From Candidatus Levyibacteriota bacterium (GTDB lineage Bacteria > Patescibacteriota > Microgenomatia > Levybacterales > UBA12049): 55,973 nt of DNA. The stretch lies in NCBI GenBank assembly GCA_016182185.1, contig JACOXU010000003.1:1-55973 (forward strand), given 5' to 3'. Positions 12,343 through 55,973 of the stretch are shown in pieces (the stretch's first letter is position 1; each line of letters begins with the position of its first letter). The position numbers and the translations under genes were made by a program. Under the pieces are notes generated by a model. The model ran no database searches, had not been told where the DNA came from, and saw only the letters and a program-made list of their open reading frames with translations.

Positions 12343-12428
12343 TTATTAGTAATTAGCCACTAGCGACTAGCAACTAGTGGTTTATTGTTTTACTAATGGC
12401 TAATTAACTAGTAGCTAGTTGCTGACTT
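12343..12428 (+). promoter_or_regulatory. structured CTAG-rich gyrA leader with interleaved inverted repeats
   Basis: taattagcca (12350..12359) pairs with tggctaatta (12397..12406). agcaactag (12369..12377) pairs with ctagttgct (12415..12423). There are three tandem ACTAGNN units and five CTAG tetramers. Confidence 0.45.
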
Positions 12429-22568: not shown

Positions 22569-23581
22569 GCATCTTCTTCTTTGAGGCGGACCAAATTCCG
22601 CCCTTTCAAATTAGCAAAAGCCATTCCTCTTAAAACTCTATCGATTTCAAGAGGCGGTAAGAAGTATTCATATAAAGATGAGCTCTGTTTTTCTCGTGAT
22701 TTTGATAAATGTGCAATTGGATAATATAGTGCTGACAGCATAAAAGGAATCATAATGGAAATTGTGTTGAAACTTCTTGTTGGAAGACTAACGCCAAGAA
22801 AACCCCACCAAGGAGCAGTTGTCCAAATAATTTTATATTGAAGGTTATCCTTCTGATTTGTTAGTTTTTCTCTAAATATTATTTTCCTCATTGAATCTCT
22901 AATTACTTGGTTAAATTTTGCTGTAAATCTCCTATCAAGCGGAGTTTTCGACTCCTGTCTTGATAGCCGATCCAAAATTTCCTCTCCGGGGATTTCTATT
23001 TTCCACCCCTCGGGGATCGGCTTGACCAAAGCTTTTGATCCATCTTCCTCGATTTCCTCGCCCCAAAACAAACCTCGCCTTTTGGTTACTGACCCATCTG
23101 CATTTACTCCGGCAATGCCTCGATTCCTATCCATAGGTACGTTTGTCAGCATAACCCGTCCTTGAATCGCCGCAACATCCAAAAGTCTGTCTGCATTGGC
23201 GCGGTTTAATTCCATTTGTTGACTAAATGGGCCATCATAAAGATTTATAAATCTTTGATTTGGAGTCGGTTCAAGATTAAACGGTTCCCACGGACTTATA
23301 TCCGGCCATTCAAATTTGGAACTATTTCTTGCAGATTTTCTTTCTCTTGCAAAGACCACACGTTCATTACGACTGTCGTTTTTTAGTCTTGCTTCTAATT
23401 CTGGGCTTTTGACCTCTATATTATTAGTATTTCCAGCCAAACCTTCGTCTATATTATCAGCTTGTGAAATACGAACAGCATCCACTCTCCCATGTGTATA
23501 ATTTTCGGGGGAGACGGTTAAACCTGGCTCAAATTCTTTATTAAGCATAGAATCAAAGGATTTTAGCAGTTTTAGATTCAA
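22565..23581 (-). CDS. hypothetical protein with C-terminal transmembrane hairpin
   Basis: 338-aa ORF with a TTG start at 23581 (alternative ATG at 23548). C-terminal hydrophobic segments WWGFLGVSLP... and ISIMIPFMLSALYYPIAHL. No recognised family. Confidence 0.5.
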   Translation of the reverse strand: MNLKLLKSFDSMLNKEFEPGLTVSPENYTHGRVDAVRISQADNIDEGLAGNTNNIEVKSPELEARLKNDSRNERVVFARERKSARNSSKFEWPDISPWEPFNLEPTPNQRFINLYDGPFSQQMELNRANADRLLDVAAIQGRVMLTNVPMDRNRGIAGVNADGSVTKRRGLFWGEEIEEDGSKALVKPIPEGWKIEIPGEEILDRLSRQESKTPLDRRFTAKFNQVIRDSMRKIIFREKLTNQKDNLQYKIIWTTAPWWGFLGVSLPTRSFNTISIMIPFMLSALYYPIAHLSKSREKQSSSLYEYFLPPLEIDRVLRGMAFANLKGRNLVRLKEEDA

Positions 23582-24376
23582 TATTCAACAAAAATGCTAA
23601 GCTCCTAAAAATATTGGGCATCCCATAGTAGGGGAGGGTATGATTTTTGGACCTTGGGATTTAACAGAGAATAAATACGGGAAATATAGGTACGCAATTA
23701 AAATTGTTAAATAATATGCACAAAAATTTGTACAAAAAAGACCACTTCTCCCATCCATCGTGCCTGAGTTATGTCGTAAAAGTATTATTGTACGACATAA
23801 TCACTTCCTCCCACCCTTGCACAAATACCGTAGATTTTTATAGACCTAACCATTTAGGGAAATAAGATAATCCATATAATGGAAGAAATAAGTCTTTGTA
23901 CTCTATCAGCGCAAAGAAAGTACTTTCTGCCATATCTTTATATAATCTTTACAACTCTCTCCTCTCTGTATCTTTGATAAGTCTTAGTTTAGCCCATTAA
24001 ATCAATCTAAATGTTAATTTTTAGCCTCAGAAATTGTAATTTTAGAAATATCAAAGGGCTCTATTAAGAGGAGAATGAACAAGCGTTCCACCGATTTAAT
24101 CGGTGTTCGTATTTATTTCAATTTGTAAGGATCTGTGGCTAAATATCCCTCTATTGTGTCTATATGCCCTCTGGGAGAAGGCTAAGTACGTATCCGTGAA
24201 AACTTAAGTTATAATATCGTGAAAATCAAAAGTTATCCACATCCGCCAGCTGGCGGCTGTCCTATAATATTTTCATCTACTATATCAAACAGTATCATCT
24301 ATGCATGGGTTAAAGCTTGAAAAAAAATCCGGCACTCGCCTCTCTCCCCTCTCCTGAGGATGGATAAAAATTTTAA

Positions 24377-27090: not shown

Positions 27091-27891
27091 TTAGTATTTT
27101 ATAAATTTATTATAATCTTTTCCCACCCTGATAGTAATATCCCCTATCGTTTGCTTATTTTCCTGCGTATTAAATCGCAAAATTTTTTTCAATCTTTCAA
27201 GTGTATATACTTGCTCGCCTTTATAGAAAATGGCCGATTTTTCTTCTAAATTTTGCGAAGTTGAAACCAGTATAACATTGCCTCCTATATTGGTTAGAAG
27301 TCTTGCAATTCTGTTGCCAAGTCCGTATTCTCCAGCCGAATTAACTACCTCAATATTAATTTTTTCTTGTGCAATTTTTTCCTCCTCAAAAACTTCTGAC
27401 AGTATTTTATCTCTTTCAGCTTCGTCTAAATTTATTGATAAATTTTCTTCTTTTATACTCTCTTCTTTTACCGTTATTAGGAAAATCCAGAGTTTCACAA
27501 TATCAGCCGTATTAAGATCTGACTTGGTATCTCTACTATTTAAGACTGCACTTGAAAGCAACTGTTTTATATCATTGTTGAAATTTTTGCTGTCCGTTGA
27601 AATATGCGCATCAAGAGGTATTTCAAGAAACTTATATATATCAATCTCTCCCCTATCCCCCTCAATCCTAAGTACTGAAATTGAACCCTTGTCAGGCGAA
27701 AAAGATAATACCTTAATATTTTTATTGTCCCAAACTAATACATTGAATTTATTATCGCTGTCGAATCGACTTCTCCCTATCAATAGAATCGTTTTATAAA
27801 CTAAAGAGGCAAAAACAATAAGCGCAATGAATGCAAAAAAAATAATGGCAAACTTTGTATTTTTGCCAGATAAATCTTTCTTTTTTTTCAT
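27091..27891 (-). CDS. membrane-anchored LytR_C-domain protein
   Basis: 266 aa. N-terminal TM, and a C-terminal IEVVNSAGEYGLGNRIARLLTNIGGNVILVST...AIFY pattern typical of the LytR C-terminal domain. Confidence 0.55.
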   Translation of the reverse strand: MKKKKDLSGKNTKFAIIFFAFIALIVFASLVYKTILLIGRSRFDSDNKFNVLVWDNKNIKVLSFSPDKGSISVLRIEGDRGEIDIYKFLEIPLDAHISTDSKNFNNDIKQLLSSAVLNSRDTKSDLNTADIVKLWIFLITVKEESIKEENLSINLDEAERDKILSEVFEEEKIAQEKINIEVVNSAGEYGLGNRIARLLTNIGGNVILVSTSQNLEEKSAIFYKGEQVYTLERLKKILRFNTQENKQTIGDITIRVGKDYNKFIKY

Positions 27892-28031
27892 TAGTAATCT
27901 TTTTTCTTTTTGGAAATAATCTCAGGCATTGTAATTGTGGGAGAAAAAACTGAAGGATTAGATATGCTTTTTTCTAAATCTTTCTTTTTCTTTTTCTTTT
28001 CACCTTTATAAAATCCGCCAAACTTCCCCAT
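27891..28031 (-). CDS. Lys-rich microprotein (46 aa), speculative
   Basis: Hand translation MGKFGGFYKGEKKKKKKDLEKSISNPSVFSPTITMPEIISKKKKDY*. Its stop overlaps the downstream ATG (TAATG). Confidence 0.25.
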   Translation of the reverse strand: MGKFGGFYKGEKKKKKKDLEKSISNPSVFSPTITMPEIISKKKKDY

Positions 28032-28050
28032 CAATAATCACCATCCCTTG

Positions 28051-28107
28051 CCCGCCGAAGCCTTCTTGACCTTCGAAGTTTTTAACGAAGGAGGTGGCGA
28101 AGGCGGG
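28051..28107 (-). other. GC-rich imperfect hairpin between rluD-like gene and downstream ORFs
   Basis: Basal stem cccgcc (28051..28056) pairs with ggcggg (28102..28107). Apical stem ccttcg (28070..28075) pairs with cgaagg (28086..28091). Conspicuous in an AT-rich spacer. Confidence 0.4.
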
Positions 28108-28173
28108 TTTATATATAAAACTATATCAATAATTACTCATAAAAACAACCATCACTACGACCTAAGTGAAAAG

Positions 28174-28950
28174 TTAATTTAACTTTGAAATGAAGCTTTC
28201 TAATTCTTTTGGGAGCGGAGATTCGAGCTTAATAATCTTGTTTTCGATCGGATGGATAAAGGAAATTCCGGCAGCGTGGAGAAAAAGACGGGGCAATACT
28301 TTTCTGTCATTTCTGGCAGTTTTACGCCCTGCGTAAAGAAAATCTGAAAAAACAGGGTGGTTAAAATATTTAAGATGCACTCTTATCTGATGCGTTCTTC
28401 CAGTTTTAGGTTTTAGCTCTAATAAACTTAAGGTCTCTTTCTCTAAATACTTAATATTTAATACTTTATACTGAGTGCTTGCCTCCCTTCCTCCTGCTAC
28501 GACTCCGAATCTTTTTCTATTAAATGGTAATCTTCCTACCGGCACACTTATTTCTCCCTCCAAAGGCGTGACTTTCCCATGGACCAGGGCGATATATTTT
28601 TTCTCAATTTTTCTTTCTTTAAACTGCCTCTGAAGATCAACAAATACCTCTGGGGTCTTTGCAATCAGAAGAATTCCCGAAGTTTCTTTATCAAGCCTAT
28701 GCACTATACCAGCTCTGCTGGTAAATTCCAAATCCCAAGCACCAAATCCCAATTTTTCTTTGTTTTTGATATTTAAATTTTGGAATTTATTTGAGATTTG
28801 AGATTTGAGATTTGAGATTTGAAGATGCCTTTCTGCCCAATCTTGTATTGTCTGCTGGTCCCCAGTTGTATCTGATCGATTAACAGTTATTCCGGATGGC
28901 TTACCTATTGCGACTAGATAATCATCTTCATATAATATTTTTATGTCCAT
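28174..28950 (-). CDS. RluA/RluD-family pseudouridine synthase carrying a 33-aa repeat-derived insertion
   Basis: 258 aa. Has YEDDYLVAIGKPSG, the catalytic HRLDKETSGILLIAKT, and GRTHQIRVHL. No S4 domain. Confidence 0.85.
   Translation of the reverse strand: MDIKILYEDDYLVAIGKPSGITVNRSDTTGDQQTIQDWAERHLQISNLKSQISNKFQNLNIKNKEKLGFGAWDLEFTSRAGIVHRLDKETSGILLIAKTPEVFVDLQRQFKERKIEKKYIALVHGKVTPLEGEISVPVGRLPFNRKRFGVVAGGREASTQYKVLNIKYLEKETLSLLELKPKTGRTHQIRVHLKYFNHPVFSDFLYAGRKTARNDRKVLPRLFLHAAGISFIHPIENKIIKLESPLPKELESFISKLN
28723..28821. repeat. palindromic CAAATCCC/GAGATTT-word repeat copy inside the rluD-like CDS
   Basis: ccaaatcccaagcaccaaatccc (28728..28750), tttttgatatttaaatttt (28763..28781; 18/19 identical to 41104..41122), and 4 x GAGATTT (28793..28820). 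Encodes QISNLKSQISNKFQNLNIKNKEKLGFGAWDLEF in frame. Confidence 0.6.
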
Positions 28951-31529: not shown

Positions 31530-31647
31530 AAATAAAAAAATTTCTAATTAACCTAATTGACCTAATTTCTAATATATAAAACTTTTTGGGATTTGGGAAT
31601 TGGGCTCTGGGATTTGATTAGATCAATTAGTCATTAGAAATTAGAAA
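31530..31647. repeat. palindromic CTAAT/ATTAG-word intergenic repeat, ORF-less copy B
   Basis: 31539..31565 (aatttctaattaacctaattgacctaa) is the exact reverse complement of 53757..53783. gggaattggg and gggatttgattag match the reverse complement of 53347..53368. attagatcaattag is shared with 2565..2578. Confidence 0.7.
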
Positions 31648-35006: not shown

Positions 35007-35114
35007 AAAATAATAAAAATCAAACCCCAGTAATCAAATCTCAAATTCCCTTTTTGATATTAGAATTTTAAAAATTACAATTTATTTGGAATTTGTAATT
35101 TGGGTTTTGGTATT
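35007..35114. repeat. palindromic CAAATC/GGAATTTG-word intergenic repeat, copy D
   Basis: 35049..35110 is colinear with 41102..41163, including an exact 22-mer atttatttggaatttgtaattt (35080..35101 = 41133..41154). Left arm caaaccccagtaatcaaatctcaaattccc is roughly complementary to right arm ggaatttgtaatttgggttttg. Confidence 0.6.
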
Positions 35115-35648
35115 TTACCCCAGTATTACTACCTGTAATTCTGTTGGCAATTTTTCTCGGACTACAGAGAATTTTTTTAGACTTTCGCTCTCTGTCTTTC
35201 CTAAGGTTTTTATATTTTCTTTACTTGCTCCTTCACCATATAGTATTAATAAATTTGCCTCAAAAGAGGTAATTAAAGACTGGTTTATCTCCGAATCGAC
35301 ATTTAAAATTAGTATCTGATAATCTTGGCTTTCCTGGAGACTTTTATCAAGAGCGCTGATTTTCCCTAGTAAAATATTGATGTTGTCAAAATGGAAACTA
35401 TAAACGTACTTGCCGTCTGATTTCTGACCGTGAATTTTTATTCCGCCGACTTCATATTCCCCTTGACCTTCAAGAACCACACGATGCTCATCAACTCTTG
35501 AAGCATCATATCCTTCCTTAAAACTCTCAAGGAAAATTACGGCATCGGCGTTTGTTTTGGGTGTCTTCACATGTGGATCCACTACCAAACTTGCATTTTT
35601 TCCCTTTACTTTTATTGAATTTTTATCAAGAAGTACTACATCCATCAA
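35115..35648 (-). CDS. hypothetical protein (MBL-fold-like outline without His motif)
   Basis: 177-aa ORF. Only a vague resemblance to small metallo-beta-lactamase-fold proteins. HxHxDH is absent. Confidence 0.45.
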   Translation of the reverse strand: MMDVVLLDKNSIKVKGKNASLVVDPHVKTPKTNADAVIFLESFKEGYDASRVDEHRVVLEGQGEYEVGGIKIHGQKSDGKYVYSFHFDNINILLGKISALDKSLQESQDYQILILNVDSEINQSLITSFEANLLILYGEGASKENIKTLGKTESESLKKFSVVREKLPTELQVVILG

Positions 35649-41056: not shown

Positions 41057-41178
41057 ATTAAATTACAAATAATATTTAAATTCTAATAATCGAATTCTAA
41101 ACATTTTTGATATTTGAATTTTGAAAATTGGTATTTATTTGGAATTTGTAATTTTGAATTTTGGAGCTTAATAATATT
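41057..41178. repeat. palindromic CAAATC/GGAATTTG-word intergenic repeat, copy E
   Basis: Colinear with 35049..35110. tttttgatatttgaatttt (41104..41122) is 18/19 identical to 28763..28781. The left part (aaattacaaata...aataatatttaa) resembles 55942..55969. Confidence 0.6.
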
Positions 41179-42054
41179 ATGGATTATCTTAAATCTCAAA
41201 TTGAAGAACTTAATAAAAAAATAGAAGAAACCAAAATTCTTCTTGATGATCCTTCTATGGCTGATTTGGCTGAAAAAGAAATAAAAGAACTCGAAGATCA
41301 AAAAATCACACTTCAAAAAAATTTCGAACCCCGAGCAACAAATATTGAGGACTCAATCGATCAAAGAAATGTAATTTTGGAGATAAAAGGCGCAGCAGGC
41401 GGAGATGAAGCCAAAATCTGGGCAGAGGAACTAATGAGAATGTATTCAAGATTTGCTCAAAAAATAGGATTTAATGTTGAGCAGGAAGACGAGAATATCC
41501 TAAAAATTTCAGGAAAAAATGTTTTCGGAATGCTTAAGTTTGAAGCAGGTGTTCATAGAGTCCAGAGAATTCCTGAAACAGAAAAACGAGGAAGAGTTCA
41601 CACCTCAACCGCAATCGTTTCTGTGCTTCCTGAGCTTGATGACATTGATCTTCATATAAATCCTGAAGATGTGGAATTTGAAGCCTTCAGAAGCGGAGGT
41701 CATGGGGGTCAAAATGTCAATAAAGTTTCAACTGCAGTAAGACTTAAGCACAAACCAACCGGAATAGTAGTTACTTGCCAAACAGAGCGTCATCAAGCAC
41801 AAAACAGAGAAAATGCCCTCAAAATGCTTCGTGCAAAACTTTGGGAAATTGAGCTTGAAAAAAGATCAGAAATGGTTTCGGAGCTTAAATCAACTCAGGT
41901 CGGAAAAGGTATGCGGGCTGAGAAAATAAGAACATACAATTTCCCTCAAGACAGACTTACAGACCATCGTATTGGAAAATCATGGCATAATCTTGAAAAA
42001 ATAATGGATGGTGAACTTGAAGAGGTAATTAGTCTTACTCAAACACAAATTTAA
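41179..42054 (+). CDS. prfA: peptide chain release factor 1 (short N-terminal domain)
   Basis: Start set at ATG 41179. Has a PxT-type tripeptide context ([14 protein letters not shown]) and the GGQ motif [18 protein letters not shown]. Confidence 0.85.
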
Positions 42055-53294: not shown

Positions 53295-53313
53295 CTTCAT
53301 CAATAATGAAGCT
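53293..53313 (+). terminator. hairpin overlapping the giant-gene stop codon
   Basis: agcttcat-caata-atgaagct gives an 8-bp stem. No T-run follows, so terminator function is uncertain. Confidence 0.35.
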
Positions 53314-53390
53314 ACAATTACCTAATTACTCTAATTATTCTAATTACTAATCAAATCCCAATTCCCCAATCTCAAGCTCTTAGGTTAATT
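53314..53390. repeat. CTAAT-word arm flanking the four-helix-bundle ORF (copy C, left arm)
   Basis: cctaattactctaattattctaattactaatcaaatcccaattccccaatctcaag. Shares tctaattattctaa and caaatcccaatt with 2483..2596. Confidence 0.65.
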
Positions 53391-53753
53391 CTATTTGACC
53401 TTCTTATAAATCGAGTTAAAAATCAAGTTAAGTTCTTTTGCCTCTTGCCATAAAACCTTAGCATCTTCCTTTAACTCTGGAACTGCAACAACAATCATTC
53501 TTATAAAATGTTTGGCTTCCCTTGATTCCTTTTTGCAAATTCCAATCTTATGTTTAAAATCTAACTTACTTTCTGCATCATCTGCTTCGCAATAGTTAGC
53601 ACCAATACTTGTTCCGCACTTTATAAATTGATTAATCAAGGGATCCGTAATTGGCCCTCTTGGAACTTTTTTACAAAATTTTATCGTATCTTCTCCAAAC
53701 TTTGCCGTCCTCTCTTCCAGATCATATTTTTGGACATTAGAAGTATTAGTCAT
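53391..53753 (-). CDS. four-helix-bundle protein (23S rRNA intervening-sequence protein / Avd-like family)
   Basis: 120 aa. YDLEERTAKFGEDTIKFCKKVP...INQFIKCGTSIGANYCEADDAESKLDFKHKIGICKKESREAKHFIRMI matches the family pattern (YDLEER..F......G.S..AN..EA....S..DF.HK..I..KE..E..YWL). Confidence 0.8.
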   Translation of the reverse strand: MTNTSNVQKYDLEERTAKFGEDTIKFCKKVPRGPITDPLINQFIKCGTSIGANYCEADDAESKLDFKHKIGICKKESREAKHFIRMIVVAVPELKEDAKVLWQEAKELNLIFNSIYKKVK

Positions 53754-53790
53754 TTTTTAGGTCAATTAGGTTAATTAGAAATTAGGTCAA
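53754..53790. repeat. ATTAG-word arm flanking the four-helix-bundle ORF (copy C, right arm)
   Basis: tttttaggtcaattaggttaattagaaattaggtcaa. 53757..53783 is the exact reverse complement of 31539..31565. The arm abuts the murB stop codon. Confidence 0.7.
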
Positions 53791-55922: not shown

Positions 55923-55973
55923 ATAAATAAATCACAAATCCAAAATTACAAATACTAAATAATATTTAAGCTA
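55923..55973. repeat. partial copy of the CAAATC/AATTACAAAT-word repeat (copy F, cut by window edge)
   Basis: cacaaatccaaaattacaaatactaaataatatttaagc. Shares aaattacaaata and aataatatttaa with 41060..41090. Confidence 0.4.

Follow-up and report, generated by a model that had tools for sequence, protein, structure and literature searches.

The window analysed here is the whole of a stretch of 55,973 nucleotides, contig JACOXU010000003.1 of a Candidatus Levyibacteriota bacterium (assembly GCA_016182185.1). At positions 28723-28821 it carries a palindromic repeat that lies in frame inside the rluA gene, which codes for an RluA-family pseudouridine synthase. Our analysis suggests that these 99 nt are probably an old in-frame copy of a dispersed Levybacteria palindrome family, accommodated in a disordered and tolerated loop of the enzyme and evolving by DNA-level processes. 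A member of this family would consist of two inverted arrays of a 7-nt unit around an AT-rich centre. The source is AT-rich DNA (window GC 0.38) from an uncultured Patescibacteria/Candidate Phyla Radiation (CPR) bacterium of groundwater; the closest named proteins are from Candidatus Levybacteria, and the rluA gene is present in groundwater metagenomes. The material comprises 56 kb of the source genome and about 20 kb from each relative.

The element and its host gene

PF00849 (PseudoU_synth_2) is the only Pfam domain matched by the host protein (E 9.5e-31, 107.5 bits against a gathering cut-off of 26.8). The catalytic Asp sits in the HRLD motif. In 35 orthologues H84, R85 and D87 never vary, and L86 hardly does. 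By sequence, the protein matches RluD, RluC and RluA in the PDB. It begins at the first strand of the catalytic domain, and no S4 RNA-binding domain was found in it. Because this N-terminal domain is absent, we name the gene RluA-family rather than RluD, and the label 'rluD-like', used in a preliminary description of this DNA, is dropped. The gene sits in an operon of the order efp-MFS-lgt-rluA, which is syntenic in relatives, and was found in contigs of four groundwater DNA runs with no variants seen among them.

The element is exactly 33 codons long (residues Q44-F76, codon 44 starting at 28821; QISNLKSQISNKFQNLNIKNKEKLGFGAWDLEF) and stops seven residues ahead of HRLD, in agreement with the coordinates and frame first described. 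The palindromic layout of left arm, core and right arm was also recovered, both arms by Tandem Repeats Finder (TRF) and the core by a mismatch search. TRF reads the right arm (28789-28822), first described as four copies of GAGATTT, as ATTTGAG x 4.9 with 100% matches, and in a stricter period-7 scan this array is unmatched by any other in the window. The left arm (28723-28752) is read as degenerate AAATCCC x 4.3 with 69% matches; this inverted 3' arm, in mRNA sense TTGGGATTTGGTGCTTGGGATTTGGAATTT, pairs with the 5' arm via G.U pairs. The AT-rich centre between them reads AAATAAATTCCAAAATTTAAATATCAAAAACAAAGAAAAA in mRNA sense.

The preliminary description took the 33 aa as an insertion. From the KPxG to the HRLD motif the host protein spans 63 aa. 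The same spacing has a median of 37 aa (range 32-55) among 62 RluA-family genes of unrelated phyla and comes to about 45 aa in the shortest Levybacteria forms. This control for loop length came from a scan with universal motifs, in which 79 of the 80 loci listed are from other phyla. PDB homologues have about 20 residues where the host protein has about 49. The segment is therefore extra relative to the RluA norm, but not all of it is: I45, E75 and F76, which fall within the 99 nt, are conserved host residues, so that the truly extra part amounts to about 18-26 codons, and it is ancient.

A homologous segment of 31-33 aa is found in most of the 120 closest orthologues (58-80% identity), with the consensus I.N.K.QI.NK..IQNSN.QN.FEFR.S.FEF, and the orthologues bearing it sit in syntenic efp-MFS-lgt-rluA operons. 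In the orthologue alignment the segment is limited to Levybacteria-like sequences and was not seen in unrelated lineages. In a quick neighbour-joining tree the long form occurs in most clades, interleaved with minimal loops, partial deletions and unrelated inserts. The minimal loops are 27 aa and still have three heptamers, and in P0008/L126, in the closest clade, 48 nt of the centre are missing. Other hairpins occupy the same rluA site in L086 (-59.5 kcal/mol, z -6.0), L096 (z -3.6) and L092 (z -3.0), and small GC-rich palindromes are nested in the arms of some orthologues, for example L100. This distribution indicates that the insertion is an old, lineage-wide event, neither recent nor private, and that the element was present already in the ancestor of a large Levybacteria group.

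A family of repeats between genes

The core TTTTTGATATTTAAATTTT recurs with one mismatch at 41104-41122 (18/19, the identity first reported) and with two mismatches at 35051-35069 (17/19), and no other site comes as close. At up to three mismatches there were seven core matches against 0.56 expected, a number reached in none of 100 shuffles. Aligned locally with gaps to the remainder of the window, the 99 nt scored at best 45 (35007-35114) and 42 (41057-41178); dinucleotide-shuffled queries scored 30.8 +/- 2.4 with a maximum of 37, so the likeness is better than composition alone would give. A repeat search also puts the in-gene locus and these two intergenic loci into one family (D2). For an nhmmer search of 424 kb of Levybacteria DNA we then built a profile on the in-gene copies found in nine other genomes, leaving the window out of it. 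The profile recovered the window's in-gene copy (28820-28723, E 9e-16) and both intergenic copies (35115-35023, E 6.5e-6, profile positions 2-85; 41167-41078, E 6.6e-5, profile positions 3-86). In relatives it recovered four more copies that lie between genes (L084, E 6.8e-8, 5.8e-7 and 8e-4; L083, E 7e-4). All of these matches are nearly full-length. Scores, core and profile together bear out the kinship with the repeats at 35007-35114 and 41057-41178 that had been proposed from the first reading.

The intergenic copies have their order of unit variants in common, and 41078-41167 shares a 31-nt identical run with a non-orthologous copy at L084 2263-2355. They have one extra heptamer after CAAATAAAT, which in-gene copies lack. 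Each occupies the spacer between two co-directional genes, in either orientation; most other spacers of the window are short, with plain TTGACA-17-TATAAT promoters and no repeats. The window holds 3-4 family copies in 56 kb, and there are more in relatives (Table 1). In the spacer upstream of dnaB a family copy is found in the window, L083 and L084 and none in L081, while L125 has an AAAGTTC-type palindrome and L123 a GC-rich hairpin. The probable member at the window end (E7) has 27 nt that are 89% complementary to 41135-41161 and 41 nt that are 78% complementary to 35075-35115. The weak relative between the NIF3-like gene and efp (E2) is a palindrome of CTAATT nonamers around four TTTGGGA heptamers, with an inverted copy at 2483-2596.

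Table 1. Coordinates of the host gene, the in-gene element with its parts, and related intergenic repeats in the window.
Feature	Position	Strand	Basis
Host gene, RluA-family pseudouridine synthase, 258 aa	28174..28950	minus	PF00849; HRLD at residues 84-87
In-frame palindromic heptamer-repeat element, Q44-F76	28723..28821	minus	Profile match, hairpin, stop-free frame, nucleotide-level conservation
mRNA-5' arm, (CAAATCT) x 4.9, encodes ISNLKSQISNK	28789..28822	minus	TRF, period 7
AT-rich centre (hairpin loop) with the 19-mer common to the intergenic copies	28753..28788	minus	Core search, alignments
mRNA-3' arm, degenerate (GGGATTT)-type units, encodes LGFGAWDLEF	28723..28752	minus	TRF, fold, pair counts
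Intergenic member E3, fills the spacer between a Lactamase_B_3-like gene and dnaB	35007..35114	minus	nhmmer, Pfam of neighbours
Intergenic member E4, occupies the whole spacer from rpmE (L31) to a class-I release factor gene	41057..41178	minus	nhmmer, Pfam
Probable further member E7, upstream of an HtrA-like protease gene, cut by the window end	55923..55973		Complementarity
Weak relative E2, between a NIF3-like gene and efp	31530..31647		nhmmer E 0.042, hairpin z -3.6

Heptamer arms alone carry little information, and the family assignment rests on the centre and the unit order. Arrays of (GAGATTT)n are very common in the source metagenomes and elsewhere, and the heptamer array is not confined to CPR bacteria. 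For 28784-28831, each of four runs yielded more than 100 unrelated contigs with (GAGATTT)n at a summed depth of thousands, and assemblies break there. Short (KSQISNL)n open reading frames (ORFs) are called in many metagenomes, some with GC-rich flanks. No second host protein with translated (AAATCTC)n arrays was found, only ORFs of 54-73 aa in diverse organisms, which were probably called across intergenic arrays. Viral contigs did not contain the family-specific pattern; the bare heptamer array occurred in seven stretches of them and is uninformative.

Two other explanations were considered. One is that the join is chimeric, formed at the repeated heptamer during assembly: in four runs the Logan contigs end within 28793-28815, and the heptamer run also occurs in hundreds of foreign contigs. 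This is hardly credible, since a 140-nt contig spans 28675-28814 in two runs and the same architecture occurs in independent NCBI, JGI, ENA and Logan assemblies of more than ten related genomes; on this agreement we rejected it. The other is that the palindrome grew in place, expanding from AAAATC...GATTTT by slippage and template switching, with the intergenic likeness due to convergence. Arrays of the (GAGATTT)n type are indeed common in many unrelated contigs, both from these metagenomes and from elsewhere, even the minimal loops have 3-4 heptamers (IFNFQFSI is (ATTTTCA)3 and IQNSKFKV is (ATTCAAA)3), and the core itself consists of degenerate heptamers, TRF reading 41105-41163 as period 7 x 8.7. 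However, the full-length profile matches cover the non-repetitive centre with the same order of unit variants, and the window's 19-mer agrees with the intergenic copies of its own genome at 18/19 and 17/19 positions but with the L081/L082 orthologues at about 14-15/19, as judged by eye. We regard growth in place as unlikely.

Concerted evolution of genic and intergenic copies within a genome was also considered; a BLAST matrix did not separate own from foreign genomes, and in this small sample the idea is not supported. The CGAAAT-type genomes have no CGAAAT-type arrays in their 20-kb flanks.

Translation and structure of the loop

The length is a multiple of three and the frame is kept, as had been stated. 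The used frame is free of stops in 10/10 genomes, and the other five frames usually hold 1-5 stops. Dinucleotide shuffles are stop-free in only 8-36% of cases, and neither E3 nor E4 is open in any of the three sense frames. Length differences of the insert among orthologues are whole codons. All the indirect evidence says that the segment is transcribed with the gene and read through as about 30 additional residues.

AlphaFold2 with a 35-sequence alignment gave a confidence (pLDDT) of 81 and a predicted TM score (pTM) of 0.79, with pLDDT below 50 at residues 51-68. Outside the loop the model superposes on RluD/RluA/RluC (11wx, 1qyu, 2i82) with TM 0.73-0.82 and Foldseek E 1e-20 to 1e-22. The segment is thus predicted to be a disordered surface loop between the N-terminal strands and HRLD, which suits the view in the preliminary description of a tolerated surface-loop insertion. 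Because relatives with the centre deleted or with other palindromes keep an intact gene, we infer that the segment is tolerated without being of use to the enzyme.

The preliminary description also offered the possibility that the segment is removed or used at the RNA level. Removal before the mature protein, as an intron, an intein or by translational bypass, is suggested only by the hairpin itself and its position inside a gene, and is very improbable. The frame is open in every orthologue though the nucleotides evolve without codon bias, there are no intein junction residues, and no Rfam family, introns included, was matched at E up to 1 in 27850-28900, nor any at the gathering score. Bypass elements need not stay open, and the in-gene element does. 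The open frame and the whole-codon length differences led us to reject all three forms of removal. A phase-variation switch was likewise rejected, array length being the same in all long-form genomes.

Conservation at the nucleotide level

What is conserved in the element is its nucleotide sequence and the complementarity of its arms, not its peptide. Among ten genomes, divergence at codon positions 1/2/3 is flat in the insert, at 0.27/0.28/0.33, where the remainder of the gene has the usual pattern of 0.27/0.15/0.53. At two-fold amino acids that are identical, synonymous differences amount to 0.18 inside the insert and 0.37 elsewhere in the gene. Amino-acid identity is 0.50 in the insert and 0.69 in the rest, and nucleotide identity 0.71 and 0.68. 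Against 163 control windows of 32 codons elsewhere in the rluA gene the insert is extreme on every measure: synonymous differences (0.235, control minimum 0.412), amino-acid identity (0.498, control minimum 0.504) and the ratio of position 3 to positions 1+2 (1.21, control minimum 1.68). Conservation of nucleotides over peptide is also seen within each of two sub-lineages.

The seventh base of the heptamer is uniform within an array and varies between genomes, being T in the window, C in L081/L085 and A in L083/L084. This concerted change alters the peptide in step (S/L/S, P/P/S or T/H/S) and therefore reflects homogenisation of the array, not selection on the protein. Between lineages of the CAAAT type and the CGAAAT type, the C of the 5' arm and the G of the 3' arm are swapped in every unit, and four stem positions switch from C-G to G-C. 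Across the ten genomes 91.4% of the cells are paired, compared with 84.3% in shuffles (0/500 as high) and 11-61% in slid controls.

Hairpin, strand and a possible cis-acting role

With its G.U pairs, the sense-strand hairpin of the window copy has -22.2 kcal/mol and z -3.0, and 0/200 shuffles are as stable; the other strand has z -0.6. The pairing of the arms on the mRNA strand with G.U wobbles was therefore correctly described. The further argument, that the asymmetry between G.U pairs and C.A mismatches hints at selection on RNA structure, does not hold. The preferred strand flips in relatives (sense/antisense z in the ten-genome set: window -3.4/-1.1, L081 -2.7/-4.2, L125 -2.1/-3.5), and in L084 neither strand forms a significant hairpin. 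The frame could not stay open without the G-for-A changes: within 21 nt, the perfect complement (AGATTTG)n would bring a TGA into each of the frames, and so would a perfect complement of the CAAATCA unit found in L083 and L084.

The element could nonetheless be a co-opted cis-element, that is, a hairpin or heptad array in the ORF that is itself under selection while the peptide is a by-product. It might act as an mRNA stem-loop in the processing or stability of the efp-MFS-lgt-rluA transcript, as an internal or antisense promoter, or as an array of 7-bp binding sites. Such a role would agree with insert nucleotides that are conserved more strongly than anywhere else in the gene, with arms that remain complementary despite changes on both sides, and with hairpins of unrelated sequence that recur at the rluA site. 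In L100 both arms have gained matching GC-rich segments, non-orthologous intergenic copies share 31-nt identical runs though synonymous sites are saturated, and L083 and L084 have four contiguous copies of AATCACA, an exact match to the heptad WATCACW discussed below. On the other side, the hairpin is insignificant in L083 and L084 and deleted in several lineages, strand preference is inconsistent among genomes, and the central base of the heptad varies between them. A scan gave 52 promoter- and terminator-like sites, no enrichment over the 41.6 +/- 6.9 of shuffled sequence, and none of the elements has a terminator match with the GC-rich stem and T run of intrinsic terminators. Our reading of the intergenic centres as TTGAYA-16/17-TRNAAT is a guess, and the extra heptamer that supplies the best -10-like hexamer of the intergenic copies is absent from the in-gene copies. 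No cognate protein was identified, and none was sought. We see the co-opted cis-element as a possible but clearly less likely explanation.

A broader proposal of this kind is equally tentative. It holds that a stem-loop or heptad binding array has been retained inside a housekeeping coding sequence (CDS) since early Levybacteria by selection on DNA or RNA while the peptide drifts. It would then be the visible tip of an undescribed CPR family of heptad-armed palindromes that colonises spacers and protein loops.

Evolution of the in-gene copy

For an old in-frame copy of the dispersed family, the following course may be envisaged. Slippage would homogenise the heptamers inside one array, and the arms would be kept complementary either by hairpin-templated strand switching (quasipalindrome correction) or by selection for pairing. 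Quasipalindrome template switching is an established mutational mechanism (PMC7202029). Coding would constrain the segment only in that indels are of whole codons and no stop codon arises, and this open-frame constraint would thus account for the G.U-type imperfections of the window copy. The filling of spacers by intergenic copies irrespective of orientation would fit a stem-loop or protein-binding role, as in REP sequences.

Several observations weigh against this account. Essentially two clades supply the covariation of the arms. If the segment were no more than a passive passenger, it would be expected to decay neutrally, and the two-fold synonymous deficit does not fit this. Taken with the high identity of non-orthologous intergenic copies, the deficit points to some sequence-specific constraint or homogenisation, and the constraint would point to a stem-loop role, a binding protein or a mobility function. 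No other CDS was matched by the profile in the 424 kb of Levybacteria DNA, and our survey of other CDSs thus leaves the in-gene element confined to one host gene, whereas in Rickettsia many genes are hosts. Defined terminal inverted repeats were not found, the arms being inverted heptamer arrays with fuzzy ends. Inspection by eye revealed no target-site duplication beside the in-gene copies or the intergenic ones, a test weakened by the low complexity of the flanking sequence, and no transposase was found in the 56 kb of the genome covered. In view of these three negative results, mobility is inferred only from presence and absence at syntenic sites. The flanking conserved codons K-I (AAAATC) and D/E-F (GAxTTT) are mutually complementary, and growth in place is therefore compatible with them. 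Finally, no RNA run searched contained the rluA gene.

Comparison with known repeats

The closest known kind appears to be the Rickettsia palindromic elements (RPEs), a likeness of working rather than of membership. RPEs are dispersed palindromic repeats of about 100-150 nt, found between genes and in frame in housekeeping genes (Ogata et al. 2000, summarised in PMC10969869). They are translated, placed where the fold tolerates them, and conserved at orthologous sites across species, in which the Levybacteria element resembles them. The element further has a multi-copy family, a hairpin dyad, an open in-frame ORF and a predicted surface position; many unrelated hosts were not found, the one host gene in 424 kb standing against dozens in Rickettsia. 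It comes from a different phylum and is alike by behaviour, its arms are tandem 7-nt arrays, and unlike RPEs it has an explicit signature of conservation at the level of nucleotides rather than peptide.

The cyanobacterial short tandemly repeated repetitive (STRR) sequences are heptameric simple-sequence arrays. Heptameric arrays have also been described as GGGNATC/GGGGAYT in Xanthomonas and Nostoc (PMC4692102) and as TAACTGA in Beggiatoaceae (PMC4679880). The element shares with these simple sequence repeats (SSRs) the 7-nt units, a preference for about four copies and a location mostly between co-directional ORFs near stops or starts. Heptameric SSRs are, however, plain direct arrays, whereas the element has two arrays inverted around a conserved centre to form one hairpin. 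The copy studied here lies inside a CDS, and its GAGATTT unit cannot form a G-quadruplex. The window unit does not supply four G3 tracts; GGG tracts are restricted to E2 (31585-31616) and the antisense strand of L081/L085, and the GGGATTT variant of L081 and E2 has the four G-tracts of the quadruplex motif, as heptameric SSRs do.

Like REP/BIME, ERIC, Correia and MITE-like repeats, the family consists of short hairpin repeats that fill spacers of co-transcribed genes in either orientation, and its presence or absence varies at syntenic sites such as the dnaB-upstream spacer. It differs from them in that no defined terminal inverted repeats or target duplications were seen and that its arms are microsatellite-like. 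PARCELs resemble the element as coding sequence with DNA dyad symmetry that is thought to spread at the DNA level, but they are 25-residue units in tandem in surface proteins, and the element is a single hairpin in a housekeeping enzyme. A more speculative lead, a resemblance only, is the omega/ParB protein of plasmid pSM19035, which binds WATCACW heptads, at least four contiguous copies of which are needed for function; the heptads lie beside promoters in direct and inverted orientation (PMC9499535). The four window units AATCTCA are one mismatch from WATCACW, and the heptad is matched by AATCACA x 4 in L083 and L084.

Other observations in the window

The rluA gene has a second heptamer run at 28446-28472 (AATACTT x 3.9), which encodes KVLNIKYL and lies in a second variable loop; other inserts are found there in P0007, P0039, P0047, P0104 and P0118, some of which resemble translated GC-rich palindromes. 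Between rluA and the LytR_C gene, 27891-28031 (minus strand) is a conserved lysine-rich small ORF of 46 aa, MGKFGGFYKGEKKKKKKDLEKSISNPSVFSPTITMPEIISKKKKDY. Several relatives have it called as a gene, and a GC-rich inverted repeat lies ahead of it. The release factor gene next to E4 starts at 41179, and its codons TTAAAATCTCAAATT at 41179-41200 repeat the AAATCTCAAAT unit of the rluA arm; the E4 arm may run into the start of this gene. An intergenic palindrome at 12343-12428 has another unit type, TAGCAAC/CTAGT (ttagtaattagccactagcgactagcaactagtgg...ctaattaactagtagctagttgctgac), and a similar one follows dnaB in L083.

A stretch of 828 nt without an ORF at 23549-24376 is a candidate for an unannotated large non-coding RNA. 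It adjoins a gene syntenic with the DUF5656 genes of relatives, and all syntenic relatives examined have an ORF-free gap of about 600-1200 nt at this locus. Conserved islands persist in it at a divergence where synonymous sites are saturated, reaching 71% across 778 nt for L081 and 85-95% across 34-60 nt for L084, L123 and L124; no Rfam family was matched (best E 0.26). In L125 the corresponding gap contains an ORF for a LAGLIDADG endonuclease.

At 53391-53753 (minus strand) a 120-aa ORF matches PF05635, '23S rRNA intervening sequence protein', and is flanked by inverted arrays of CTAATT/TTAGG nonamers at 53295-53390 and 53754-53790. The latter array is complementary at 27/27 positions to an arm of the palindrome at 31530-31647. 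That palindrome and the one at 2483-2596 both lack an ORF, and they may represent the empty form of an element of the intervening-sequence kind.

Implications

To our knowledge, in-frame palindromic repeats have so far been known mainly from Rickettsia, and we found no description of them for Patescibacteria in the literature. If the 99 nt are indeed an in-frame copy of a dispersed family, such repeats would recur in another lineage with reduced genomes. The segment would be a natural case of a coding sequence that conserves its nucleotides but not its amino acids, one that dN/dS measures and annotation pipelines would misread, and predicted CPR proteins should be treated with the caution that they contain translated repeat elements. 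The rluA loop would be a permissive marked site where many hairpins have landed or grown, and would be useful for studying both the origin of repeats by slippage and hairpin-templated switching and their tolerance by proteins.

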